A DNA stretch of 64,000 nt. Origin: a virus. The notes below the pieces were generated by a model, which was not told the origin of the DNA, made no database searches, and saw nothing but the letters and a program-made list of their open reading frames with translations. Positions 6,662-24,190 of this stretch are shown piece by piece. The first letter of the stretch is position 1. Every line of letters begins with the position of its first letter. The DNA lies in the IMG/VR virus record IMGVR_UViG_3300035698_010295, positions 13,668 through 77,667 of that record, one strand, 5' to 3'. Position numbers and translations under genes: made by a program.

Positions 6662-6960
6662 TTTGCCACCTTAGATTCAGCCATGTCTTTAGTTTTCTGC
6701 CATCTTTCAGCAAACGCCAATCGCCATATATTGATAGCTCCCAATCCGACACATAAACCAATTGCGAGTAGTGATACACCCTTCAAAACTGACTCTTTCA
6801 CAAAATAGCCACCGAGAAATATCTCAGACGCTGACACAAATGAGAATAGAGTCGCAAAATTATTAATTGTATCTTGTAACCCATCAATTACCGCCTTATT
6901 CCTTATCAAAAGGTAATGATCTACATTGAAAACCAGCTGCGGATTTATGGCCACCACCAC
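6658..6960 (-). CDS. hypothetical membrane protein
   Basis: Hydrophobic segments; start uncertain. Confidence 0.4.
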   Translation of the reverse strand: MVVAINPQLVFNVDHYLLIRNKAVIDGLQDTINNFATLFSFVSASEIFLGGYFVKESVLKGVSLLAIGLCVGLGAINIWRLAFAERWQKTKDMAESKVAK

Positions 6961-7705
6961 CCCTATTCTTAGCTATAAAAGCAACATCAATTTTATTAGA
7001 TCGTAAACTAACTGTCCAATTAGAGCCATCATTATAATAAAAAATCACAATATCATAATTATCAATACGACCCTCTATCCGATTACTACTAATCATAGGA
7101 CGATTTACTGCCCAACAGTTATTACCCTCAAAAACACAATCAAACCCTATTTTATTTAAGAGTTTGTCTTCCTGTGCCTTATATTGCTCTATAATTTTTC
7201 CTTGTTCTACTAGTTCATCAATATTGATTTGATACATATACTTTAACCAAAACTCAGATGTTGGTGATGTATCATACAATTGACTACCGGCGAAAAAATA
7301 TTTAGTTTCATCACCAAAATCCCATTTCCATATATCACGATCTGCTACTAAGTTTATTGATTTAGGTACTACTTTATTGGGATAAATATACCTCCATGTT
7401 AAGATACAAGCTGCATCTTCTATTGATCTTACTCCATCAATTTCTTTGGGGAAACCAACATATTTTTCAAGAGCCGTTTTATGGTGATCAATCCAAACAA
7501 CGTTTGTTGTTATTTCCAAGAGTTTTAACATTTCTGATGGTTCGATAGAGTAATCTACGATCCATATTTTTTCGTTTGGTTCTATGGCTTCAAATGGAAA
7601 TGGTGTTCCATAATTGATCTCTCGCATCTCACATTCATGGTACTGGTCATAGACACAAAATCCAGATGCTTGTCCATCTAGATCATCATGGTGAAAACAC
7701 TTCAT
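6896..7705 (-). CDS. DHH/DHHA1-family phosphoesterase
   Basis: HHDDLDG, VDYS, WIDHH, SLRS, GGGGHKSAAG. Confidence 0.9.
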   Translation of the reverse strand: MKCFHHDDLDGQASGFCVYDQYHECEMREINYGTPFPFEAIEPNEKIWIVDYSIEPSEMLKLLEITTNVVWIDHHKTALEKYVGFPKEIDGVRSIEDAACILTWRYIYPNKVVPKSINLVADRDIWKWDFGDETKYFFAGSQLYDTSPTSEFWLKYMYQINIDELVEQGKIIEQYKAQEDKLLNKIGFDCVFEGNNCWAVNRPMISSNRIEGRIDNYDIVIFYYNDGSNWTVSLRSNKIDVAFIAKNRGGGGHKSAAGFQCRSLPFDKE

Positions 7706-8040
7706 AATATATTCTCCAATTTTCTTACGATAGCCTCAGCTTCATCACTAATTTCAAGGGATGTTATGTATCTGCGTTGTGCTAATGTACATAATCTCGC
7801 TAATAGTAAATGTGTGGCCTCATGTTTTGCTATTAATTTTGGATCTCTATGATCGTTATACACAGAAGAAAAATAAACTGAAGCACATTTGCCAGATTCA
7901 TCAATATGAATCTCAGCATAATTATCTTCTAATGGTTCAAAATTAAAATCTATACAATATTCTTGTAAACCTAGTTTATTTGCTAATTCTTTAAATGTCT
8001 TTTTAAATAATACAAAGTCTTTTTTAGGTACTTTCTTCAT
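7702..8040 (-). CDS. HExxH putative metallopeptidase
   Basis: KHEATHLLL with downstream EAE. Confidence 0.5.
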   Translation of the reverse strand: MKKVPKKDFVLFKKTFKELANKLGLQEYCIDFNFEPLEDNYAEIHIDESGKCASVYFSSVYNDHRDPKLIAKHEATHLLLARLCTLAQRRYITSLEISDEAEAIVRKLENIL

Positions 8041-8512
8041 TTAGAACCTTAGTTTCAAGTTGTTCAGCGGTAATTTCAATGGTAGCATTAGCTACATTAC
8101 GCAGTTCATTACAAACACCACACGCAATAATCATAACTTTTTTATCTAATTCTTTAAGGTAAGTTACCAATGGAACAAGATCTCTACTAGCTGAACCTAG
8201 GATAACCTGATCCAATGCATCAAGATTACGAATAATATCCACTGCAATATTAACACCTAAAGTTGTGTTTCTATTCCTAGTAGTGTGTATAAACTTTGTT
8301 GAAAATCCAAGAGCATTGAGTCTTCTTATGAAAGCTTTAGCTTCATTGTCTATTTTTACACCAAAAGCTCGACAAACTGTTATTTCACCACCTTCAGGTA
8401 GTTCTTCACAAACAGTATTTAAATATTTTGAATAATCAATCTTTTGTTCTTCAAAAGCACGACCTACACAATAATAAAGATTTGATACATCAACAAATAA
8501 ACCTACTCGCAT
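8024..8512 (-). CDS. NYN/LabA-DUF88 PIN-like domain protein (degenerate)
   Basis: VGLFVDVSNLY N-terminal motif, LGSASRDLVPLV, ELRNVAN. Confidence 0.75.
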   Translation of the reverse strand: MRVGLFVDVSNLYYCVGRAFEEQKIDYSKYLNTVCEELPEGGEITVCRAFGVKIDNEAKAFIRRLNALGFSTKFIHTTRNRNTTLGVNIAVDIIRNLDALDQVILGSASRDLVPLVTYLKELDKKVMIIACGVCNELRNVANATIEITAEQLETKVLNEEST

Positions 8513-8524
8513 AATAATTTTCCT

Positions 8525-10411
8525 TTACTTAACTGGGCAACCACCTTTGGAGCACTCAGTTCCTTCAATAATATCACCAGACTCTATCCCACTGTAAATT
8601 GTTTCTTTATTTATTTCATTATATTTTTCCTCTGTTATTTCTTCCATAGGTGCTTGTATAAAACCATGATCACTTTTTAAAACAAATGAGAGTGTTTTAA
8701 TTTCAAAGTAATTTTGTTGTAACCATTTTTGTATAATAGGTAATTCCCAAGGTTCATAATATATTGTACATGATACACTATTATCTGACCAGTGACGTTG
8801 AAGCCAAAGAGCATTTTCCAATTGATCAGTAACACTTAACTCTGAAGCACAGATAGCATCAGTTTTAATCGGGAATGATATTACCATAACATTAAGGTCT
8901 TGGTTACCATTTAAATCAATCTGTGGTTCAATATGATAACCATGTTTTCGACAAATTTCTACAACAGGATCATTAGAAGCCATACGTACTCTTCTAATAT
9001 AGTAAGGTGCAAAAGCGGGATGTGCACCTGGTGTTACACCTGCAAGAAGTGAAACTGTGCCTGATGGTTTGACTGTGGTTAATTTAATACTAGGTAAAAC
9101 ACCAAGTAACCTAGAAAAGTTAGCATCTTCATACTCTAAATTATTATATACATTAGAAAACAAATCACTATCAAGTCTAAAGTTAGATTGCATAAATCCA
9201 GTTACGGAAAGACCAAGTCTATGGTTTCTGGTCACGACTTCGGTTGTCTCTGGATAAAGGAACGGTAGTGTACTTATGATTTTACAAGCTTTCATCATTA
9301 GTACAGAAACCTTTTTAAATTCACCTTCAGTACGTATATTAGGTAAGAATATCTCACCTAAGTTGCAAGCCTCATAGGATTCAAGCGTAATTTCAGCACA
9401 AGGATTAACACCAGTCACACGTTCATCTGTTCTATAGTTGAAGCCATCTACAACCCTACCATATTGACGACAATTCTTTAAATTTATCAAACCGTAAGGT
9501 TCTCCCTCACCATTATAACCATCCCAGAAGTCAGGTGATATATCTTCATAATCATTACAAACTATACTATTGTTTGACATGCTCCGCCAACTAGGGATAC
9601 TGTGCTTACCCCAATTTTTAGCATCTAAGAAATCTTGATCATGTGAATCACCTAATGCTAGTTCAGCTGAACGTCTCACATTTCCAGATACCACTATTTG
9701 TCCAATGATATTTAATATATCCAATGAATCAATAGGGCGTAATTTTTGTCCATATCTCTTAGACAAAACACCACATATTTGTGTTAAGCCTATTACAAGT
9801 TCTTCACTACCAGAAGCTACACCTCCGAACGTTATAATTTTTGTTCCTTTGGGGCGTATGCAAGATGTATTATATTTAATATCTTTTCCAGTAAAGAAAA
9901 ATGCTTTTAGGATTTTACCAAGTATATTTACCCAACCTTCTCTATTGTCAGGTACAACATAATCGCAATCGAAATCATTAACCCTAGTGACAGTAGGGTC
10001 GAAGCAAACTGTTGGGATTTCATAAACAAATTCCGGGCAAATATTAAAACCAACACCGCCGCCAAGCATAAGTTCATTAAATGTAAAACAAAATGGTTTA
10101 ATTGCTTCTCGTATGGCGACTTGCCAACAATTTTGTAAACTATCACCCCCGAAACGATGAACATTATTAGTGCCAAGCTGCCACAAAGCACGTCCAGAGA
10201 AACTGCATCTGAGGTTAAATACGTGATCATATAGTTGCTCCTGCTCATCTCTTGTGAGGATATCAGCTATTTCAGCTAAACCATTAATACAACGTTCTAC
10301 AGTTTGATACCACTCTTCATCTCTGGAATATGTTCTTTTATAGATTATGTAACCTATTGGACCCCAAGGCGGTCTTTTATTTCTATAACGATTTATGAAA
10401 TCTTTTCTCAT
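8525..10411 (-). CDS. nrdJ: adenosylcobalamin-dependent (class II) ribonucleotide reductase
   Basis: SGR, LQNC, GGGVG, GNVRRSA, NPCAEI, TTVKPSGT, C-terminal CSKGGCPVK; no beta subunit in the window. Confidence 0.9.
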   Translation of the reverse strand: MRKDFINRYRNKRPPWGPIGYIIYKRTYSRDEEWYQTVERCINGLAEIADILTRDEQEQLYDHVFNLRCSFSGRALWQLGTNNVHRFGGDSLQNCWQVAIREAIKPFCFTFNELMLGGGVGFNICPEFVYEIPTVCFDPTVTRVNDFDCDYVVPDNREGWVNILGKILKAFFFTGKDIKYNTSCIRPKGTKIITFGGVASGSEELVIGLTQICGVLSKRYGQKLRPIDSLDILNIIGQIVVSGNVRRSAELALGDSHDQDFLDAKNWGKHSIPSWRSMSNNSIVCNDYEDISPDFWDGYNGEGEPYGLINLKNCRQYGRVVDGFNYRTDERVTGVNPCAEITLESYEACNLGEIFLPNIRTEGEFKKVSVLMMKACKIISTLPFLYPETTEVVTRNHRLGLSVTGFMQSNFRLDSDLFSNVYNNLEYEDANFSRLLGVLPSIKLTTVKPSGTVSLLAGVTPGAHPAFAPYYIRRVRMASNDPVVEICRKHGYHIEPQIDLNGNQDLNVMVISFPIKTDAICASELSVTDQLENALWLQRHWSDNSVSCTIYYEPWELPIIQKWLQQNYFEIKTLSFVLKSDHGFIQAPMEEITEEKYNEINKETIYSGIESGDIIEGTECSKGGCPVK

Positions 10412-10435: not shown

Positions 10436-10849
10436 TCATGATAAGTACCTCGCAAATCTTTTAGCTGCTGTTTTAGCCTGGCCAAGTGTTTTAATTGTTA
10501 TAGTGCCGTGTTCACCAAACGGTGTTATGATCTTATTGCCTTTAAATGTAGATGAAAATAACTTATCACCAATTGAGAAACCAAAAATACCACGATGACT
10601 CCAACCAAACCAAGCTTGTAAAGATTCACTAAATCCTATTTGAGCAACAGTCCCCAATATATCCGCAGATTGCAGTTGACGTAAGTCACGCTTTTTACAT
10701 AGTGCTCTAGCCACATTAGATGAGCCAATATAAGACCCATCTAAATCTGAATAGCAACTAACCAATTCATAGCTACTCTTACCTGATTTAATAATCTCTC
10801 TACGGTAAAAGTAACCAGGGTAATGGCGTTCAAATTTAATTTTTTTCAT
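10436..10849 (-). CDS. hypothetical phage protein
   Basis: 137 aa, WFGWSHRG motif. Confidence 0.6.
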   Translation of the reverse strand: MKKIKFERHYPGYFYRREIIKSGKSSYELVSCYSDLDGSYIGSSNVARALCKKRDLRQLQSADILGTVAQIGFSESLQAWFGWSHRGIFGFSIGDKLFSSTFKGNKIITPFGEHGTITIKTLGQAKTAAKRFARYLS

Positions 10850-11604: not shown

Positions 11605-12480
11605 TCAACCTTCAACATGTTTAACAATACAAGTTTTATCGGCTATAATTTTACACATATCATAAACTTTTATTTTACACTTATCAAATACTTTTACAAT
11701 ACAAGCATCTTTAACAGTTAACGTACATGAATCATAAGCTTTTACACGACAAGCTTTACAAGCATGTATTTTACAAGAATTCTTAGCGTATATTCTACAA
11801 GAGCCACTAGCAGACACTTCACACTTATTGTAAGCATTAATAATGCCTGAACCATTAGCATGTAGTTTACATATATCATGAACATTTACAGTACAATTAT
11901 CCCCCACCCGCACGTGACAATTATTAAATCCATTTACCACACATAAATCATATGCTAATATCTCACAAGCATCATAAGCTGTAACCATACACATTTGACA
12001 AAGTTCAACTTTACAATTATTATGAGCATATACTTTACACTTATCAGAAGCATTAACTTTACAAGCATCGTAAGCATATATAAGACAAGAATCATTAGCT
12101 AGTATAGTACATTTACCGTGAGCTCTTATAAAGCATTTTCCATATGCGTATATATTTTGATCATCCTTAATTTCTATTTCTTCATTAATAAAGACTTTAC
12201 TTTTAAACCAATCTGGTAATACAAATCTAACGCGTCTCTCAACATCTTTAGAATCATACCAATCTGGTCTTAAATCTTGATCTAAATTATATTTCCAATT
12301 AGTTGTGGGGCTACTTAAATCACCATCTGGTGGTGATATTTCTATTCTAACAAAAGTTGGATCTCCACGCACATCTAACTCTTTTAACTTAAATTCCTCA
12401 ATAATATCTTCATGGCTATCAGTTTTAGTTGACCAGTAAACTTTTTTCTTAGTAACAATCATACTTGCAGGTTCACACAT
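11605..12480 (-). CDS. beta-helix-like repeat protein
   Basis: About 20 eight-residue repeats of type AYDxCxVx in the C-terminal two thirds; AAGGAG RBS. Confidence 0.65.
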   Translation of the reverse strand: MCEPASMIVTKKKVYWSTKTDSHEDIIEEFKLKELDVRGDPTFVRIEISPPDGDLSSPTTNWKYNLDQDLRPDWYDSKDVERRVRFVLPDWFKSKVFINEEIEIKDDQNIYAYGKCFIRAHGKCTILANDSCLIYAYDACKVNASDKCKVYAHNNCKVELCQMCMVTAYDACEILAYDLCVVNGFNNCHVRVGDNCTVNVHDICKLHANGSGIINAYNKCEVSASGSCRIYAKNSCKIHACKACRVKAYDSCTLTVKDACIVKVFDKCKIKVYDMCKIIADKTCIVKHVEG

Positions 12481-12502: not shown

Positions 12503-12587
12503 TGCCCGAAGTGGGAGTCGAACCCACACGAGAGTTAATCTCAAGGGATCTTAAATCCCTTGTGTCTGCCAATTCCACCATTCGGGC
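12503..12587 (-). tRNA. tRNA-Leu(UAA)
   Basis: GCCCGAA/TTCGGGC acceptor stem, AGGGA-TTTAAGA-TCCCT anticodon arm, long variable arm, GTGGG-TTCGACT-CCCAC T arm, discriminator A, no encoded CCA. Confidence 0.93.
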
Positions 12588-12936
12588 TATTAGCTTCTTT
12601 TAATAATTCATCTAATTCTTTAAAAGTTGGATCAGTTTGTTTAAGATGATCTATATACTTAGTATTATCTTTAATAGCACACTGTATCTTATTTGTAATA
12701 TTAACATCTTTAATAGTTTGTTGTATGATTCTATCTTGAAGCTCACCAATTATATCACGTAATGCATGAGATAACATGGTATTAACTTCTTCTTCAATAT
12801 GATCTGTGTTTCTGATACAACAAGCAGATGTACTAGTTAAATGTTTACCATCAATACTAGCATTAACTATGAGTTTGACTGTAATATCATAATTAATCTC
12901 AAAACATAATTGGTGTTCTATTTCTATATTAATCAC
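12541..12936 (-). CDS. hypothetical protein (3' end runs into the tRNA)
   Basis: 131 aa, 4-nt overlap with the Ro60 stop. Confidence 0.55.
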   Translation of the reverse strand: MINIEIEHQLCFEINYDITVKLIVNASIDGKHLTSTSACCIRNTDHIEEEVNTMLSHALRDIIGELQDRIIQQTIKDVNITNKIQCAIKDNTKYIDHLKQTDPTFKELDELLKEANSPNGGIGRHKGFKIP

Positions 12937-14492
12937 TTTGAAAACTCCGATATTACATTGGGGGTGGCAGTATCAAAACCCACAACATCTAACATACCAG
13001 GATCGCTTGGATCAGCTATTGAAAACTCAGTGGGTTCCATAGACACTACAATTAATTTAGCATAGATACCTGTTTTCTTGCGATACTTTAATAAAGCTTG
13101 TACTGGGTGAATACCACCACACCAAGTTTCATTATCGGTATAGATAACAAACGTGTCTACACTTATATTGTGTTCTAAAGCATAGATCATTGGTAATGAG
13201 CAGTCTGTCCTACCAAAAGGTAAACCTTTTACCGTTTTTACAACATCATCAAGTCTTTGTCTAGGAGATATATTTAATGTTGTTAATCTACTTGTAAAAG
13301 CTGTAATCACATAATTAGGCTCCACACTAGCAGTGATTAGAGCCATAGCTGCTGTGCCAATCCGTGGTGAAATACCAGTCATACCTGCAAGATCAGTGTG
13401 ACTCATTGAACTTGATACATCTAAGGCTAACATTGTACGTTTACACGTTGGTTTAACAGTGTCAAAAGAAAGATAGAAAGCTTGATCGAGTGCATCAATA
13501 ATACTGGTGTTTGGACTCCAAGATAATGAGCCTTTAAAACCATGTCCCTTAGTGTATGTGTTTAGTGCCACAAGTATAGAGAGTGGATGTACTCTAGCCT
13601 TTTTGAGTTGATCTTTGTCTGTTAATCTTTGAACTATTAGATTAGCAGACATTGGACCTATAGTACCGACAGATGTCATTTTGCCAAGGTTGCGAATCAT
13701 AGCAGTCAGTGGCATTTTTTCTAGCAGAGCATCCCAGATATTTTTGTTGTTTAGCATCTCAGTAGGGATAGCTTCACGAGGTAAATTGTATGCCCTGATC
13801 ATGTTATATAGGATTTCTGACTCACAAATTTGTGCATCTTCATACGCTCGTACTATGGCAGGTGCAGTTGGTGTAAGTTTGCCTTGTGTTATCCAGTGAT
13901 ACAAAGATTGATATGTTGAATTTGGTGGTATGGGATGACTCTTACGTAGAGCATCTCTATGTGACCAGCCATCTCTTTGTCGATATTTTATACATTGGTA
14001 AGCTAAAGCATCTACATCCTTGTCATTATACCAATTAGCTACAGCAGTACGTAATAAGCGACCCCACCCGCGGAATTGTTGAACAAATTCCAAGAAATGA
14101 AATAGATGTGTACCTATTCTGGCAACCTTGGGCAACTGAGCCAAGGCGTAGTTCTTTTCATCACCAATACTAGCTGCCATAGCCAAAGCAAAAAGGCAAG
14201 GGTCATTTTTAGGTGCCCTGCCTTCAGTACTAATCTCAGTGATTTTGTCAATCGTTCTTTTAGCATCCAAATCTAAGCAACGTAAAACACACTTAGCATT
14301 ATCGCTGGTGAGCTTATGTTCTTTAACATAGTAAGTGCCACCCTCTGAGCCTAGGATTAAGAATCTCTCAAGACGGTACCAATCACTAATTGACCAGACA
14401 AAGCCTCCGGCATTGTTGCCAACCTGGTTAGAACCAGGGATTGCCTCCGATTGTGGTGTTACTAGTGTGCTAAAATTCTGGTAAGTCTTCAT
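12933..14492 (-). CDS. rsr: Ro60/TROVE-domain RNA-binding protein
   Basis: NNAGGF, RFLILGSEGGTYY, KYRQRDGWSHRD, AMIRNLGKM, vWA MIDAS DVSSSM, YTDNETW, MLDVVGFD. Confidence 0.95.
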   Translation of the reverse strand: MKTYQNFSTLVTPQSEAIPGSNQVGNNAGGFVWSISDWYRLERFLILGSEGGTYYVKEHKLTSDNAKCVLRCLDLDAKRTIDKITEISTEGRAPKNDPCLFALAMAASIGDEKNYALAQLPKVARIGTHLFHFLEFVQQFRGWGRLLRTAVANWYNDKDVDALAYQCIKYRQRDGWSHRDALRKSHPIPPNSTYQSLYHWITQGKLTPTAPAIVRAYEDAQICESEILYNMIRAYNLPREAIPTEMLNNKNIWDALLEKMPLTAMIRNLGKMTSVGTIGPMSANLIVQRLTDKDQLKKARVHPLSILVALNTYTKGHGFKGSLSWSPNTSIIDALDQAFYLSFDTVKPTCKRTMLALDVSSSMSHTDLAGMTGISPRIGTAAMALITASVEPNYVITAFTSRLTTLNISPRQRLDDVVKTVKGLPFGRTDCSLPMIYALEHNISVDTFVIYTDNETWCGGIHPVQALLKYRKKTGIYAKLIVVSMEPTEFSIADPSDPGMLDVVGFDTATPNVISEFSK

Positions 14493-14511
14493 AATAGTCT
14501 CCTAAATAAAA

Positions 14512-14582
14512 TGGATAAGTTGTGTTAATAGATATGCGTGGGTACGAACCCACTATCTTGGTAACCTATTAACTTCGACCCA
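14512..14582 (-). ncRNA. Y RNA-like element with an apical T-arm hairpin
   Basis: TGGGTCGAAGTTAATAGGTTACC...GTGGG-TTCGTA-CCCAC...CTATTAAC-ACAACTTATCCA; bulged-C Ro stem, directly 5' of ro60. Confidence 0.8.
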
Positions 14583-14584
14583 AA

Positions 14585-14707
14585 CCAGAGGGCAGGACTC
14601 GAACCTGCGACCACGCTATTAAAATTAGATAACCAACAATTGCCGACCCAAAAGGATAAGTTATTAACTGTCGAGTTTACGTGCTCTGCCAACTGAGCTA
14701 CCTCTGG
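14585..14707 (-). ncRNA. tRNA-Y RNA chimera 1 (tRNA body with anticodon loop replaced by a Ro-binding stem)
   Basis: CCAGAGG/CCTCTGG acceptor, TAGCTCAGTTGGCAGAGC D arm, GCAGG-TTCGAGT-CCTGC T arm; insert ...AACTTATCC-TTTT-GGGTCGGCAATTGTTGGTTATC... Confidence 0.8.
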
Positions 14708-14711
14708 TAAT

Positions 14712-14835
14712 GTGCGGGGTGGGAGTCGAACCCACTATCTTCAGACCCTAGATAATCAATAACCTTCGACCCTATTGGGTTAGTTTATGGCTATCGAGTG
14801 TTTATTCTGACGCTCAACCGTTGAGCTTCCCGCAC
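14712..14835 (-). ncRNA. tRNA-Y RNA chimera 2
   Basis: GTGCGGG/CCCGCAC acceptor, GCTC/GAGC D stem, TCAGA/TCTGA anticodon stem enclosing a 60-nt insert ...AACTAACCC-AATA-GGGTCGAAGGTTATTGATTATC..., GTGGG-TTCGACT-CCCAC T arm. Confidence 0.8.
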
Positions 14836-14839
14836 TACA

Positions 14840-14899
14840 GACGAGCAAGTTATTGTTCTGGGGATTCTTAAGCAGATAACCCAGAACATTCGGCTCGTC
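14840..14899 (-). ncRNA. minimal Y RNA-like hairpin
   Basis: GACGAGC-CGAA-TGTTCTGGG-TTATC...CCCAGAACA-ATAACTT-GCTCGTC. Confidence 0.75.
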
Positions 14900-14912
14900 A
14901 CAATTTAATCAA

Positions 14913-15152
14913 TCATAGGTTTAATAGGGTATTGATTATAACTTCTTTGACTTTTTCATCAAGTGCTTCAACTTCTGCTAATAAGGCAGCAGGAAAGATA
15001 ATTTCTTTATCACTACTGTAAGTGCTTGAGTTAAAAGTTTCTGTAGCTACAATTTTATCACCCAATTTAACAGAGTAAGTGCCCATCAACTTTTTTTTAT
15101 TAGTGTCTTTTTCTTCATAACGCCATGATTTTGTTTCAATAGTTAGATTCAT
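14913..15152 (-). CDS. hypothetical protein
   Basis: 79 aa ORF within the RNA array. Confidence 0.6.
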   Translation of the reverse strand: MNLTIETKSWRYEEKDTNKKKLMGTYSVKLGDKIVATETFNSSTYSSDKEIIFPAALLAEVEALDEKVKEVIINTLLNL

Positions 15153-15621: not shown

Positions 15622-15670
15622 AACTATCTCCTTAATATTTAATAAAACAGTGACCATTGAAAACAAAATA

Positions 15671-15729
15671 AGGGCAAGTGATTTATTGTGGGAGAAATCA
15701 CCTAAAGATAACCCACAACATTCGGCCCT
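15671..15729 (-). ncRNA. minimal Y RNA-like hairpin
   Basis: AGGGC-CGAA-TGTTGTGGG-TTATC...CCCACAATA-AATCACTT-GCCCT. Confidence 0.75.
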
Positions 15730-15732
15730 AAC

Positions 15733-15796: not shown

Positions 15797-15805
15797 TTAA
15801 AAAAG

Positions 15806-15883
15806 TAGGGCAAAATTATGTCAATTGGTAATTGAGATTAGCTTTAAAAACTGTTATGTGATAACCAACTAACTTCGGCCCTA
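15806..15883 (-). ncRNA. Y RNA-like hairpin
   Basis: TAGGGC-CGAA-GTTAGTTGG-TTATC...CCAATTGAC-ATAATTTT-GCCCTA. Confidence 0.7.
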
Positions 15884-15913
15884 ACATTTAACTTGGTTCC
15901 CCCAAACAGAACA

Positions 15914-17847: not shown

Positions 17848-20079
17848 CTATTTATCAGCCCACGATTTTAAATTTTTATGCCATTCAATGTTAATCAACG
17901 GTATGATAGGTCTGTATTTTTCTATTGTTTGATTAACAACTTTCGCAACGTTATCAGCAATCTCTGGGACACAAGGACACATGATTTCATCATGTATATT
18001 CATGGGCATTACTTTCCAAGTTGTTACACCGGATGGTTGTAAATCCCAGATGGCACATTCAACATTTTTAGTAATCTGAGCACCAGTGCTCTGAATGCGG
18101 TGATTAGCAGCTGCTCGCATATTAGCAGCTTGAATAGCAAAAGCTGCCCCAAAAAGTGCAGAACGAACTGCTCCACTAGCCGTTTGTTGACGATCACGAC
18201 GGACAACTTTTATTTTTATATCACACCATTCTTTAGGTGGTTGTTCTGCTAAATCAAATAAAATTTTACAAATTCTATTTTCAAGTTCAAAATACCTTTT
18301 AAAACCAAGCATTGATTCTATGAATATTGCTGGCTCATGCCACTCAACACGAGTACCGATGCCTCCTGGCTGCTTCATTGAACAAAATTTAGCAAAGACT
18401 TTACTACGAGCCTTACCAATTTCTGGGTACATTTTAATGATTTCTTGATAAGCATCTTCTGCACTATTAATAGGAATACCTACTCTATTAGAAAGTGTAT
18501 TAGCTTCACCACCATAAATTAAAGCAAAGACACCTTGTTTACTTTTATGATATCTATCATCTTCTTGACCTTGGGTTTCTAGTATTTCATCATAGCTCAT
18601 ATCAGGGTAGAAACATTGGCCCAGAAGAGCATGAATCTTTTTTCCACTCTCCAAGTCTTTCCGGAGTCGTGGATCATTATATTCAGCATCTGCAAGTGTT
18701 ATTTCGAAACTAATAAAATCACCACCAGAGAGATTCATACCTTCTGGGGCCAATGGAAAACAGCTTCTTAATTCCTTTTCATGTCCTATACCTTGAGCAT
18801 TAAGGCCATCGGCTCCCGACATTCTAGAACTTAGAGTTCCTATGACTTTAAAAGATGCATGAAATCTACCAGCTTGTAAAAGTTTATCTATAACTTCTAT
18901 TTTCTTTTTTGCTTTTCTAGCTTCTAAAATTTCTTTAGCTGCGGCTGCGGCTGGGTGATCATCCCAAGTTAATATCTCTTCGAGAATTTGTCTTTTAGTA
19001 GATTCACGAATACATAATTGTTCAGTTTCATTCATTTTTGACATTAAGTATTTTTTAGCAATATGTGGCGTAGTTGCAAGAGTCATTTTTTCTTTAAGTA
19101 ATTCTTGAGATTTTAGTTTTAAATTTTGTAGTTTATCAAGGTCTAATCTGTAGCCTTTCCAGCGTACAGCACCCACCATACAAGCTAGAATAGAATCGTC
19201 GTCATTAGCTAGTGTATGATACTCTGGTGCCCAATCATCACTATTAGCATATTGCCTTGGGTTTGAGCGTTTAGCCTCTAACCAACAAAAATACTTATAC
19301 AAATTTCTAGTGTATCTTACATCATCCTTAGCATATTCTATAGCTAGTCTATTATACATCCAAAAGCTCAGATGTTCAGTCAACATATCAGGCCAATATC
19401 CCCAGCCTTTACCCGCAAAGGGTGCCCAACCTTTTTCTTCAACTTTAGCTCCACATTGTAGATCATCGAACTTGCGTACTTCTAAACCAAGAGCATCAAC
19501 AGCTAGTGCTTTTAAAGCAGAAGATGGCTTAAATCCTAAAACAACATCTTTAAAGTTAGGATCAATATCACCTAAATCATTTTTTACATCGAAGACTTTC
19601 CACCGCTCTGTTGGGTCTTGTTTCCTAGCAAAGTAGATGTCATTGAATGGGATTTTTCTGCCAAGCTCTGAAGCCAACATCCAAGCAAGAGGAGTTGGCA
19701 CACGTTTAATACGTACATCGCTCCTATCCATTGTAGATTGGTATGGACCTTTTCTTGCATGGAGCATAAGATCAAAAGCACCGATAGGCTTGATACAAAA
19801 GCCATCGCGGGAAGCCAACTCTCCTTTAGCAATTTCCGATATATCAGGAATACCAATGTGGTTGACAAAAAGATTATACAACTTACAAATATGAAACCAA
19901 TCAAAAGCCAAATTAAAACCAACGATAGTGTCATTGCAAAATTCCTCTATAAGAGATAGTGTTTCGGATATTGGTTCTTCCCATGGGTAATATAGTTGTA
20001 TAGGTCCATCATCTTTAGCATATTGAATCAAACATATTACACCATGAAAACCACAGGTTTCAGTATCAAGGAAGATCAT
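17848..20079 (-). CDS. polA: family A DNA polymerase with 3'-5' exonuclease domain
   Basis: Exo DTET, GFNLAFD, YAKDD; polymerase motif A GDFISFE, motif B KQGVFALIYG, IQSTGA, motif C IHDEI. Confidence 0.88.
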   Translation of the reverse strand: MIFLDTETCGFHGVICLIQYAKDDGPIQLYYPWEEPISETLSLIEEFCNDTIVGFNLAFDWFHICKLYNLFVNHIGIPDISEIAKGELASRDGFCIKPIGAFDLMLHARKGPYQSTMDRSDVRIKRVPTPLAWMLASELGRKIPFNDIYFARKQDPTERWKVFDVKNDLGDIDPNFKDVVLGFKPSSALKALAVDALGLEVRKFDDLQCGAKVEEKGWAPFAGKGWGYWPDMLTEHLSFWMYNRLAIEYAKDDVRYTRNLYKYFCWLEAKRSNPRQYANSDDWAPEYHTLANDDDSILACMVGAVRWKGYRLDLDKLQNLKLKSQELLKEKMTLATTPHIAKKYLMSKMNETEQLCIRESTKRQILEEILTWDDHPAAAAAKEILEARKAKKKIEVIDKLLQAGRFHASFKVIGTLSSRMSGADGLNAQGIGHEKELRSCFPLAPEGMNLSGGDFISFEITLADAEYNDPRLRKDLESGKKIHALLGQCFYPDMSYDEILETQGQEDDRYHKSKQGVFALIYGGEANTLSNRVGIPINSAEDAYQEIIKMYPEIGKARSKVFAKFCSMKQPGGIGTRVEWHEPAIFIESMLGFKRYFELENRICKILFDLAEQPPKEWCDIKIKVVRRDRQQTASGAVRSALFGAAFAIQAANMRAAANHRIQSTGAQITKNVECAIWDLQPSGVTTWKVMPMNIHDEIMCPCVPEIADNVAKVVNQTIEKYRPIIPLINIEWHKNLKSWADK

Positions 20080-21111: not shown

Positions 21112-21306
21112 TTTGGCACCACAGTTTGCTCCATAGCATCTTTGATGCCTTCAAAAAATTGATTTAATAAACCAATTTTGACACCTTTACAAAAGATGAA
21201 ATTTTCATTTTTATCAAACCAAGCACACCTTGTAATGACAAACTTTTTTTGAGTTAAAAGGGAAATCAAAGCCATGACTACAATTTATCTTTACTCCATC
21301 AATCAT
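21108..21306 (-). pseudogene. frameshifted tandem paralog of 20926..21111
   Basis: MIDGVKINCSHGF...KVCHY in one frame, CAWFDKNENFIFCKGVKIG in another. Confidence 0.4.
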
Positions 21307-24190
21307 TACTTTTTTCATCCAACACCTTTATAATATTACCTAAACTCAAACTTTGTAATTGTTTCTTTTGCTTCAAATTATCCAGTACGTATTTATCAGT
21401 AGGTAAGTGAAAAAGATCAATAATAGTGGCACCTCTATTATTATCCATACCAGGACGATGTATCCTGTCTTCAGATTGAAGCCTATACATGCCATTGAAA
21501 TCATTACTATAGTATACAATAGATGGTGAGGCTGTAAAAGTAAGACCTTCAGATCCAGAAGCAGGGTGACCAATAACACACAACAAAGGAAAAGCATTAC
21601 GAAATTCATTGTATTTTGGATGCGATAAATCCATAGCTTGTAAGGCTTCATTAAGGTCATAACTATTTCCCTCTTTATCGGAAACAGTCCATCCTTGGCC
21701 GTCAATCCTTATTACGATCCAGCCAGCTTCTTTAACCATTTTACAAAGATGATCTATAGATGCTGTAAAACCGGCATAGAAAACGAGTCTAGCGACTTCC
21801 ATATGTTCATCAAGTAAATTAAGTACAACATCATTTTTAGGGCAGTCAATAAAGGTTGAGTCACGCTCATAAATAGATTGAATTCCAGTGCTACCACAAT
21901 TTGGACATGGAATTTCTTCATATTCAAGAGGATCAGTGTCTGGCTTAGGATGTTGTATTGTTTTGTTCCCGAGACAAAGACTACATGTTTCGGTTCCAGT
22001 TTTGACTTTAGTATATTGAAAACCATCACTTAACTCTCGTAAGAGTGTTAGTGCTTTAATTGTGCTTGATGCTGTATTAGCGAGTGTTCTAGCAACATTT
22101 AAAATCGATTGTGTTGGTTTCACCTCAATTATGCGATACTGTTTATCCGGAAGATCAAAACAATCTTTTTTAAATTGGACTAAAACAAGTCCTTTAAGTC
22201 GTTTACTTAATTTTGAAACTTCATTTATTGATCTTGTAAACTCGTGATACCCTGGCTCAGTTAGATTGTGATTTATTGCATCTTTAAACTGACCACAAAT
22301 TTTACATTTATTATCATCATCCCACCATGTAATTAGCTTTGGATATGATCCACCATATTGTGCTTCACACATCTCTGTGAGACACAATCTATTACGAAAT
22401 TTAGCTTCAGTTCCCTCTCTTAAAAAACCGGGCATTGCTACTTCACAATTATGTGCGATAAATCCATTAGCAGAAAATTTATGTATACCTGGAACTTCTA
22501 TATCATAGACATCTTCTATAGAATCTTGTTCAACAGATTCTACTGTTGCTACTGGTGTGCTGGTCCAATTATGTCTATTTTTGATTCTCTTAATCAAGCG
22601 TTCTTTTTTCTTTGTTTGATTAAAATCAATAATATATTGAAATTTAATAGCTTCAGTATTTATTATTTGAATTTCATAACAAAAATCTGATGTATTAATT
22701 TTGCGTCCATCAATATATGATATACCTACATTTTTTTTAATTCTTATCTTACAATAAATACCTAAAGACTGCAATAATAATTGAATTTTATAGATTCTAT
22801 CTTTATCTACTTGTGCTAATGTTATTCTTAAAGTATCTTTAGAAACACTACCATCAGCATCAAACATACCTCTTAAAAATCCAATAATAAAACTACTAGA
22901 TGCAGTCATTATATTGTGGTCAATAATCTTTTTTGGTGTGATACCCCACTCACGAACAATATCATTAATTCTACCACCATGAATTATAAGGGCTTCACCA
23001 CTAGAAGTAATATTATCTTGTTCAAGTATTTTACATACTTCTGGTATCAAGCAAAAATCACCCTCAAAAAATTGAAGGCGACTATAGTAACCACTTTCTT
23101 TTTTAGTAACATTACCATCACCAAACAACAACCCTAAAATGTAACCTTCATTTTCTGATCCTGTTCCCTCCCAGTGATTGTATGATTCTGGCGTTGAAAT
23201 TTTGATTTCATCACCAATTTCTAGCTCACATAATTTTCTCCAAAGCTTTAAGCCATCATAATTAACAAGGAATTTTTGATCTTCTGTAGCTCTTACAGAA
23301 TACCCTTCATTAGTGTTAATCTTATAAAGTTGCTTAGTTCCAGTTTTAAAGAAACCATTAGTCTTTACTTTGTGGTTATCAACTAATATATTAGTCTTTT
23401 GATGAATTAACTCTTTAATTTGTTTTAGACCTTGATCCGTAGTTATCCAAGTATCATCAGAAAAGCATTGCCAAAACCAATCAGTTGGGGCCTTTGGGGC
23501 AGGTGTTCCTGTTAAACAGATAACAAACCCTTTTTCTTTGTGTTCTAATCGTACACTATTAGCCAAGTGTGATGCTGCTTGTGAACGTTGTGAAGTGGAA
23601 TTTTTAATTCGAGCACTTTCATCAAACACAACACCTTGTGGGGCAACTCCATCCCATGACTCTAAATCAATACGAAACTTATCATAAGTTAAGAGTCGCG
23701 GTTTTACCCGCGACTCCCACTTCAACAATTCCAACTCAACACTTTTAAGGGCTGATTTAGGAGCTATGTACCACCAGTCTTTTAGACCAGATTGCTCCAT
23801 AACTTCAATAGCTGCAAGTGATTTTCCAACACCCATCTCACCAGCAAACATACAATAGTGTCTGGTTAGTATGTGCCTTACTGCTTCAACTTGATGTTTA
23901 AACAATGGGCGGTCAGTGACACAATTTAATAAATCAGCATCATAAGGAGCATATGGATTTTCATTTTTAAGGTATTTTAATTGGAAAACATTTCTCGGTG
24001 TAAGAGGTGCACTCCAAATTTTACGTGGATTATTATCAAAGCCATGCCATTTTGCACCTGACATATTTTTGATTTCATCCATCAACTTGCGATTAAAACG
24101 AAACTTAAAATATATTCTACCATCTTCAACAGCAACTTGAGCAGGTATTAAACGATTTTCTGCTCGTAACTTCATCATTTGATAATCCAT
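21299..24190 (-). CDS. SNF2-like superfamily 2 helicase with intein
   Basis: EMGVGKS, VFDES, LTGTP, EGLTFT, QSEDRIHRPG. Confidence 0.9.
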   Translation of the reverse strand: MDYQMMKLRAENRLIPAQVAVEDGRIYFKFRFNRKLMDEIKNMSGAKWHGFDNNPRKIWSAPLTPRNVFQLKYLKNENPYAPYDADLLNCVTDRPLFKHQVEAVRHILTRHYCMFAGEMGVGKSLAAIEVMEQSGLKDWWYIAPKSALKSVELELLKWESRVKPRLLTYDKFRIDLESWDGVAPQGVVFDESARIKNSTSQRSQAASHLANSVRLEHKEKGFVICLTGTPAPKAPTDWFWQCFSDDTWITTDQGLKQIKELIHQKTNILVDNHKVKTNGFFKTGTKQLYKINTNEGYSVRATEDQKFLVNYDGLKLWRKLCELEIGDEIKISTPESYNHWEGTGSENEGYILGLLFGDGNVTKKESGYYSRLQFFEGDFCLIPEVCKILEQDNITSSGEALIIHGGRINDIVREWGITPKKIIDHNIMTASSSFIIGFLRGMFDADGSVSKDTLRITLAQVDKDRIYKIQLLLQSLGIYCKIRIKKNVGISYIDGRKINTSDFCYEIQIINTEAIKFQYIIDFNQTKKKERLIKRIKNRHNWTSTPVATVESVEQDSIEDVYDIEVPGIHKFSANGFIAHNCEVAMPGFLREGTEAKFRNRLCLTEMCEAQYGGSYPKLITWWDDDNKCKICGQFKDAINHNLTEPGYHEFTRSINEVSKLSKRLKGLVLVQFKKDCFDLPDKQYRIIEVKPTQSILNVARTLANTASSTIKALTLLRELSDGFQYTKVKTGTETCSLCLGNKTIQHPKPDTDPLEYEEIPCPNCGSTGIQSIYERDSTFIDCPKNDVVLNLLDEHMEVARLVFYAGFTASIDHLCKMVKEAGWIVIRIDGQGWTVSDKEGNSYDLNEALQAMDLSHPKYNEFRNAFPLLCVIGHPASGSEGLTFTASPSIVYYSNDFNGMYRLQSEDRIHRPGMDNNRGATIIDLFHLPTDKYVLDNLKQKKQLQSLSLGNIIKVLDEKSND
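22448..23467 (-). mobile_element. 340-aa intein with LAGLIDADG homing endonuclease
   Basis: Junctions WQ|CFSDDT and VYDIEVPGIHKFSANGFIAHN|C; block B ATEDQ; motifs LGLLFGDG and LRGMFDADG. Confidence 0.92.

Follow-up and report, generated by a model that had tools for sequence, protein, structure and literature searches.

Conservation of Y RNAs and Ro60 extends from bacteria to humans, and RNAs of the transfer RNA (tRNA) type tolerate rotation of their strand order, as seen in the circularly permuted tRNA genes of red algae and in two-piece transfer-messenger RNA (tmRNA). The bacterial Y RNA YrlA (RF02553; PMC4201824), whose structure has been reported (Wang et al. 2018, 10.1101/312249), ends in its Ro helix and places the T arm before the D arm, with an acceptor-like stem that is closed and of variable length. 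The 5' strand of the Ro helix carries the motif GNCGAAN0-1G (Chen et al. 2014, PMC4201824). In Mycobacterium smegmatis, RNase P cuts YrlA within the acceptor stem of 7 base pairs (bp), CCA is added, both halves stay bound to Rsr, the Ro60 of this species, and YrlA and YrlB derive from one precursor (PMC4201824). Here we describe two elements on the minus strand of a viral window (the whole stretch of 64,000 nucleotides (nt) that was analyzed, positions 13,668 to 77,667 of IMG/VR record IMGVR_UViG_3300035698_010295), element 1 at 14711-14835 and element 2 at 14584-14707. In contrast to YrlA, their parts follow the order of a tRNA (acceptor 5' strand, D arm, Y arm, T arm, acceptor 3' strand), with a true 7-bp acceptor stem and a Ro helix closed by a loop (AAUA or UUUU). 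We consider it likely that these elements are genes for two paralogous Y RNAs, partners of Ro60, in a tRNA-order branch of the YrlA family. The large tRNA-order family that we found in phages and bacteria probably represents a YrlA-type Y RNA variant for which the literature searchable in full text yielded no description. The Rfam YrlA model does not cover the topology, in line with a preliminary description of this DNA, made from the sequence alone, which knew of no earlier account of the topology.

That description had placed two tandem tRNA-shaped elements at this site, and both are present as proposed. Each pairs its own two ends in a perfect acceptor stem of 7 bp and has a D arm and a GGUUCGA T arm (Table 1). 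Both score above the gathering threshold of the Rfam tRNA model (RF00005; 29 bits) and align with it over their full length, element 1 at 48.3 bits (E 2.7e-9) with a 59-nt insert in the anticodon region and element 2 at 43.3 bits (E 6.5e-8) with a 64-nt insert, matching the insert of about 60 nt expected there. Both fold better than shuffles do, element 1 at z = -4.1 and element 2 at z = -2.5. Each insert proved to be a strand-swapped, loop-closed version of the module found in four neighboring Y-like hairpins of normal strand order, again as first suggested. The module consists of a bulged-C lower helix, an upper stem, UUA(U/C)C and an A-rich bulge, and the upper stems (8-9 bp) differ in sequence in each of the six copies, yet all of them pair. 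In both elements the insert runs from the upper 3' strand through the A-rich bulge, (C)UUAUCC or UAACCC, the tetraloop, GGGU[C]G(A/G) and the upper 5' strand to UUAUC.

The two elements differ in how the module is mounted. In element 1, which we assign to type B, an A-rich linker, the Y module and UUAUC-UAGGG lie within the 5-bp anticodon-type stem, and there is no anticodon loop. Its module comprises the upper 3' strand (14789-14797), the A-rich AUAAAC, the lower 3' strand UAACCC (14777-14782), the loop AAUA (14773-14776), the lower 5' strand GGGU[C]GA (14766-14772), the upper 5' strand (14756-14764) and UUAUC (14751-14755), and its motif GUCGAAG fits GNCGAAN0-1G. In element 2, which is of type A, the anticodon-like stem is interrupted between nt 28 and 29, where the Y arm branches off. 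This arm is made of the linker UAAAC, the upper 3' strand (14666-14674), the A-rich AAUAAC, the lower 3' strand UUAUCC (14654-14659), the loop UUUU (14650-14653), the lower 5' strand GGGU[C]GG (14643-14649), the upper 5' strand (14633-14641) and UUAU (14629-14632). The original statement that the anticodon loop is replaced thus holds for element 1 and not for element 2 and its relatives, which keep an anticodon-like hairpin and carry the Y arm as a side branch.

The elements are part of an RNA array that lies in the 420-nt noncoding stretch directly upstream of ro60 on the same strand. The array stops 16 nt short of the ro60 start codon, with both on the minus strand; the location used to recognize YrlA genes is likewise the same strand within about 4 kb of a Ro60/TROVE gene. 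Its units are separated by spacers of 0-4 nt, and the whole array of 411 nt folds as four separate modules. A YrlB-like RNA begins right after element 2 and stops at the ro60 ribosome-binding site, with a weak 31-bit match to the nematode stem-bulge (Y-like) RNA family RF01656. In a whole-window Rfam scan at the gathering threshold, element 2 alone passes the speed filters, and ARAGORN calls neither element by default and element 2 when introns are allowed. No Rfam 15 intron family matches the inserts (E up to 10), and no Rfam 15 family covers tRNA-order RNAs apart from tRNA and a weak YrlA match.

The helix anatomy of the two elements is conserved, its pairs covary, it occurs in two subtypes, and the genes are tightly linked to Ro60-type genes. 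We examined 85 viral loci encoding a Ro60 relative with a covariance model (R1) for which five type A sequences served as seeds, with ARAGORN allowing introns and with a custom scanner, and all three approaches find tRNA-order units of 100-190 nt there; R1 was also applied to 80 bacterial and archaeal Ro60 loci. Element 1, which is not among the R1 seeds, scores 60.4 bits with this model. A copy was called strict if its acceptor stem had at least 6/7 pairs, its D and T stems were intact and its lower Y stem had at least 5/6 pairs; the acceptor cutoff was adopted because tandem canonical YrlA genes can be cross-read as a chimera of tRNA and Y RNA, as in Gordonia phage Cashline. The Cashline candidate (R1 47 bits) was rejected, given that it has 4/7 acceptor pairs and its sequence is that of two tandem canonical YrlAs. 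These two genes (MW534378.1, L169:1697-1975) lie directly upstream of the annotated Ro-like gene, are unannotated in the GenBank record, and have 5' halves that are identical over 24 nt. Among other cultured phages, Streptomyces phage Genie2 has ordinary tRNAs and one weak match only, and GMA2, Farewell, Forza and Rizal have weak or cross-tRNA matches only; a second protein search for cultured phages did not bring up nonactinobacterial ones.

With R1, strict copies number 27 in 20 of the viral loci and, among the best 150 matches, 66 in 42 of the 80 bacterial loci. The family is therefore not phage specific, contrary to the phage-centered reading given at first. Host groups include Chloroflexota, Myxococcota, Gemmatimonadota, Armatimonadota and others, with the isolates Polyangium jinanense SDU13 and Polyangium sp. 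15x6 among the carriers. Nearly all units are on the Ro60 strand, and the viral ones are mostly less than 1 kb upstream of the gene. In five whole genomes (49 Mb in total), 17 of 17 chimera-length matches lie at most about 6.5 kb from a TROVE gene, and the sole other strong match is an ordinary 73-nt tRNA. Both Polyangium genomes also have a second, divergent TROVE-domain gene (666-amino-acid (aa) and 1174-aa frames; G001:C1:278571-285947 and G002:C11:139926-148510), and three more chimeras are found 5-6 kb from this second gene. Many bacterial Ro60 genes (L088, L090, L093, L101, L161 and others) sit within same-strand arrays of at least 10 ordinary tRNA genes with chimeras interspersed. About 1 kb upstream of one viral Ro60 gene is a subthreshold match to a type-P1 twister ribozyme (L002:1403-1460; 45.6 bits, gathering 67.2).

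The arrangement of free acceptor ends in tRNA order with a loop-closed Y helix, as first described here, recurs in many of these Ro60 loci, viral and bacterial, and with strong covariation. In type A, pairs 27:43 and 28:42 form from two bases after the D arm and are followed by an A-rich linker, the Y arm, UUAU, C29-N-N, the 7-nt loop and bases 39-41, so that the anticodon stem is continuous and the Y arm branches from its side. In a plain MAFFT alignment of 14 type A members made without model fitting (A2), 98.3% of cells are paired, both partners have changed at 17 of 21 pairs, 0/500 shuffles paired as well, and sliding the 3' partner by 1-3 columns lowered pairing to 37-49%. Pair 28:42 covaries across the 50-80-nt insert (UA 6, CG 4, GC 3), and the elbow nucleotides U8, A14, G18, G53, U54, C56, A58 and C61 are invariant. 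Type B builds a 5-bp anticodon-type stem around the linker, the Y module and UUAUC-N2-5-GG(G/A)(A), and is part for part an exact rotation of the Rfam YrlA consensus. Its plain MAFFT alignment (A6, 13 members) has 96% of cells paired and 20 of 27 pairs changed on both sides, including 7/7 in the acceptor stem and 5/5 in the anticodon stem, with 0/500 shuffles as good. Pairing with slid partners (1-3 columns) was 32-49% over the MAFFT alignments of both types. An Infernal alignment of 48 distinct long rows gave 95.5% of cells paired versus 34-50% when slid, and in it the lower Y helix covaries (GC 33 and AU 9 at one pair; CG 34, UA 6 and UG 3 at another). The lower Y helix (helix 4) is 93.7% paired in the bacterial loci, and most members of the family have the lower 5' strand motif G(C/U)CG(A/G). 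The upper Y stem is not in register under MAFFT and was left out of the model; it was judged from folds and by eye. Adjacent pairs (gap of at most 40 nt) consist of a type A and a non-A unit in 11 of 11 cases, which is a lead rather than a statistic given that some of the loci are related. Inspection of paired A and B units by eye showed no consistent pattern of complementarity between their anticodon loops.

These data bear on whether the pair is one ordinary YrlA read across the junction, with the element 1 Y 5' strand and T arm joined to the element 2 D arm and Y 3' strand, so that the chimeras would be a tandem-repeat artifact. Chen et al. cautioned that tandem tRNAs can give such read-across YrlA matches (Chen et al. 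2014, PMC4201824). The Rfam YrlA model, which detects neither element, has its sole match in exactly this register (14658-14762); the element 1 Y 5' strand can pair with the element 2 Y 3' strand, and the tandem YrlAs of Cashline are a mirror case in that they weakly cross-read as a chimera. However, the match reaches 27.8 bits against a gathering score of 69, CCCGCAC and CCAGAGG form no acceptor-like stem, the fold is no better than shuffles (z = -0.37), and half of each element is left orphaned, so the failure of this reading reported in the preliminary description stands. In addition, the acceptor stems pair perfectly inside each unit and covary, and single chimeras without a tandem partner occur in many loci (e.g., L041, L033, L065, L084, L038, L057 and L001). 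We regard an ordinary YrlA at this site as extremely unlikely.

The subtypes also speak to the idea that the elements are working tRNAs whose arm is tolerated or whose insert is removed posttranscriptionally, which would make element 2 a tRNA-Lys(UUU) and give the phage decoding capacity. With the insert cut out in silico, ARAGORN calls element 2 a canonical tRNA with anticodon UUU (Lys), and removal of the insert between nt 28 and 29 makes 79 of 102 members tRNAs for the same program. Type A loops have U at loop position 2 (tRNA position 33) in 45 of 46 seven-base loops, mostly with AA at the loop end, and Ro60 loci are often located within tRNA arrays. Against this, the triplets scatter over at least 18 specificities after in silico removal, and the near-identical relatives L065 (UGA) and L084 (UGU) differ in their triplet while sharing the same acceptor stem. 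Many bacterial members have loops of 6 nt or are otherwise degenerate, and type B, including element 1, has no anticodon loop. The discriminators do not fit the supposed identity either: element 2 has U73, while Escherichia coli tRNA-Lys has A73, and the commonest discriminator in the family is C73, while the tRNAs of the same loci mostly have A. The insert at nt 28/29 is not at the usual intron site and matched no intron family, and with an arm of 50 nt at the anticodon stem, a collision with the 30S subunit would be probable. A tRNA gene with a group I intron was considered as well and rejected, given that a self-splicing insert of at least about 200 nt in the anticodon loop would be expected and the insert measures 50-64 nt and in type A sits at nt 28/29. 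U33 is kept while the triplet drifts, so it seems that the shape of the loop matters and not its reading. The drift of the triplets, the mismatched discriminators and the rarity of encoded CCA all speak against charging with a conserved identity. Because the triplet drifts and CCA is rarely encoded, the elements are probably Ro60 partner RNAs and not decoding tRNAs, and we consider a decoding role very unlikely.

We propose that elements 1 and 2 are probably transcribed together with the Y-like hairpins that flank them, in a single array that precedes ro60. The 5' ends would then probably be cut by host RNase P and the 3' ends by tRNA 3'-end enzymes, with CCA added afterward; this processing is likely given that each element has a T arm and a D arm with intact elbow nucleotides in addition to its true 7-bp acceptor stem. 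Each RNA is predicted to fold as an L-shaped tRNA body with a long arm growing from the anticodon stem, and at the tip of this arm is the bulged-C helix GGG(U/C)[C]G(A/G) with (C)UU(A/G)(U/C)CC, the counterpart of the helix that docks Ro60 in Y RNAs. Normal Y RNAs have their two ends at this tip, where the elements have a small closing loop. By analogy with YrlA, the tRNA body may serve as a handle for a tRNA-binding factor while the Y arm holds Ro60. Given the 0-4-nt spacers, cuts at the tRNA ends would also free the neighboring Y RNAs. This raises the possibility that the tRNA bodies are mainly processing signals that release neighboring Y RNAs from a polycistronic precursor, as tRNA-like elements do elsewhere, and have no effector role. 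Cuts at the element ends would yield the 3' end of the hairpin upstream of element 1 and the 5' end of the YrlB-like RNA, and the common precursor of YrlA and YrlB in M. smegmatis (PMC4201824) points the same way. Single chimeras without an adjacent Y RNA are left unexplained, and we judge a role limited to processing unlikely, although such a function is compatible with, and not exclusive of, the elements being Y RNAs.

Several observations weigh against our assignment of the elements as Y RNAs. The putative binding of Ro60 rests on two things, the likeness of the arm to known docking helices and the linkage of the genes. The element 2 motif GUCGGCA agrees with 5/6 fixed positions of GNCGAAN0-1G and is not an exact GNCGAA, and element 1 carries A8 in place of U8 and lacks a standard 15:48 pair. 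About 13% of family members encode CCA, compared to about 20% of neighboring tRNAs; the per-locus agreement between the two is poor, and the presence of CCA is for that reason uninformative as a test of the 3' end. Neither RtcB nor a CCA-adding enzyme was found in the phage record, which is 83% complete, and every proposed processing step would consequently rely on the host. Finally, the Infernal alignments (A4, A5) were fitted to the model structure and lean toward it, which is why the MAFFT results carry more weight.

If the elements are Y RNAs, they could also be informative about how bacterial Y RNAs arose. Within the tandem pair studied here there is already a YrlA in rotated register, and pairing across the junction is possible between the Y strands of the two units, which makes tandem chimera pairs plausible intermediates between tRNA and YrlA. 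An evolutionary link of this kind was part of the preliminary description, and it fits the dimeric-tRNA origin model cited in 10.1101/312249. A fuller scenario, which we hold to be doubtful, is that a tRNA grew a Ro60-docking arm on its anticodon stem while still being matured, CCA-tailed and perhaps charged, and became the ancestor of bacterial Y RNAs. Canonical YrlA would have arisen when a tandem type A/type B pair, such as the one described here, came to be read across its junction. In function, the open tRNA end might bring Ro60 to tRNA-handling enzymes, or the RNA might act as a decoy for anticodon nucleases during infection. If true, this scenario would supply a living intermediate for the dimeric-tRNA model.

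More broadly, the family bears on two questions, namely, what the partner of the tRNA-like half of bacterial Y RNAs is and how Y RNAs originated from tRNA, and it offers a concrete intermediate for the proposed tandem-tRNA origin. One prediction that follows from it is that Ro60-bound RNAs are generally, and not in M. smegmatis alone, substrates of RNase P, of the CCA-adding enzyme and possibly of further tRNA enzymes. It also shows that covariance models can misread tandem arrays both ways, chimeras as YrlA and tandem YrlAs as chimeras. The cultured carriers P. jinanense SDU13, with a chimera at L161:3883-4007, and Polyangium sp. 15x6 are hosts suited to direct tests.

The source is a 77.7-kb virus record with a CheckV completeness estimate of 83%, and the sequence of window positions 14300-15000 is carried by three sequencing runs, all DNA, from salt-lake metagenomes. 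The genes around the array are a phage-typical set (Table 1). The counterdefense gene Tad6 is located 2 kb downstream of ro60 and thus near the Ro60/Y RNA array. The position of the array amid early, defense-related genes makes a possible part in conflicts over host tRNA worth considering. Between the reductase gene and the window start are an NYN-domain RNase and a DHH phosphoesterase, which may be RNA or nucleotide-signal processing enzymes. A candidate promoter lies about 30 nt upstream of the array; promoter-like sites in the region are no more numerous than in shuffled sequence, and this candidate is therefore weak. Two further genes stood out in the window. A SNF2-type helicase gene (21299-24190, minus strand) is split by an intein that includes a homing endonuclease of the LAGLIDADG type (Intein_splicing 1.3e-16, LAGLIDADG_3 4.8e-14), and a 291-aa open reading frame (ORF; 11605-12480, minus strand) has proline-rich repeats matching Cornifin/SPRR (3.2e-10) and PHROG 15773, a match that is probably driven by composition.

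Table 1. Features of the Y RNA array and its surroundings (positions in the window)
Feature	Position	Strand	Details
Element 1, type B tRNA-order Y RNA (likely)	14711-14835	-	discriminator included
Element 1 acceptor stem	14829-14835 with 14712-14718	-	GUGCGGG/CCCGCAC, perfect 7 bp
Element 1 D arm	14812-14826	-	GG of D loop present
Element 1 anticodon-type stem	14806-14810 with 14741-14745	-	UCAGA/UCUGA, 5 bp
Element 1 Y module, swapped strand order	14751-14797	-	from sequence and fold
Element 1 T arm	14719-14735	-	GGUUCGA
Element 1 discriminator A	14711	-	
Element 2, type A tRNA-order Y RNA (likely)	14584-14707	-	discriminator included
Element 2 acceptor stem	14701-14707 with 14585-14591	-	CCAGAGG/CCUCUGG, perfect 7 bp
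Element 2 D arm	14683-14698	-	GG of D loop present
Element 2 outer anticodon-stem pairs	14680-14681 with 14614-14615	-	C27-G43, G28-C42
Element 2 Y arm	14629-14679	-	from sequence and fold
Element 2 inner stem	14626-14628 with 14616-14618	-	CUA/UAG, 3 bp
Element 2 7-nt loop	14619-14625	-	AUUUUAA, 3' of Y arm
Element 2 T arm	14592-14608	-	GGUUCGA
Element 2 discriminator U	14584	-	
Minimal Y-like hairpin, normal strand order	14838-14902	-	GAGC[C]GAAUG, 8-bp upper stem, GGUUAUC, AAUAACUUGCUC; fold z = -6.5; 4 nt upstream of element 1
YrlB-like Y RNA, normal strand order	14508-14583	-	degenerate T arm; fold z = -3.0
Further upstream Y-like hairpin	15668-15732	-	AGGGCCGAAU, upper stem, GGUUAUC, CACUUGCCCU; fold z = -3.4
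Further upstream Y-like hairpin	15803-15886	-	AGGGCCGAAG, upper stem, GGUUAUC, AAUUUUGCCCU; fold z = -3.5
Candidate promoter	14935-14962	-	UUGAUG, 16-nt spacer, UAUAAU; 10/12 consensus positions
ro60	12933-14492	-	519 aa; Pfam TROVE 1.9e-46, vWA_Ro60 2.5e-62
tRNA-Leu(UAA)	12503-12587		
Tad6 (type I Thoeris inhibitor)	10436-10849	-	137-aa ORF; Pfam Tad6 4.4e-27
Class II ribonucleotide reductase	8525-10411		
NYN-domain RNase	8024-8512	-	1.1e-18
DHH/DHHA1 phosphoesterase	6896-7705	-	PHROG 4771, 1.4e-47
Family A DNA polymerase	17848-20079		

Among the closest known systems is YrlA (RF02553; PMC4201824). YrlA and the elements are adjacent to ro60/rsr on the same strand and have in common a Ro-type helix, whose CGAA-type motif fits in element 1 and agrees at 5/6 fixed positions in element 2, a 3' strand that ends in an A-rich stretch, CUUG and the lower strand, tRNA-like D and T arms with near-identical stems (GCUC/GAGC and GCGGG/CCCGC), and an anticodon-type stem of 4-5 bp. 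Type B (element 1) holds every part of YrlA, whereas type A differs from it by an extra anticodon-like hairpin. The cleaved YrlA of M. smegmatis (PMC4201824) is a Ro60-bound Y RNA with an opened 7-bp acceptor stem bearing CCA, so that a Y RNA can evidently have an open tRNA-like end, but it is made in the canonical form and is in two pieces after cleavage, whereas the elements described here would be in one piece with the Ro helix closed. Deinococcus radiodurans Yrn1 (PMC4201824) is also a tRNA-like Y RNA with a D-like arm before the T arm; in it, the Ro stem carrying the RNA ends replaces the acceptor and the anticodon-like arm is closed, whereas here the Ro helix is placed on the anticodon arm. 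Circularly permuted tRNAs, which are discussed in 10.1101/312249, and permuted tmRNA are rotated away from tRNA order and are then restored or remain in two pieces, while here a member of a Y RNA family is found in tRNA order. Canonical tRNA (RF00005) shares the acceptor stem, D arm, T arm, variable loop and elbow nucleotides, but lacks a Ro-type arm of 50-60 nt. An uninterrupted 5-bp anticodon stem with a 7-nt loop and an anticodon matching the identity, which define a canonical tRNA, are found in neither element; instead, they have a drifting anticodon or none at all, and their genes show linkage to ro60.

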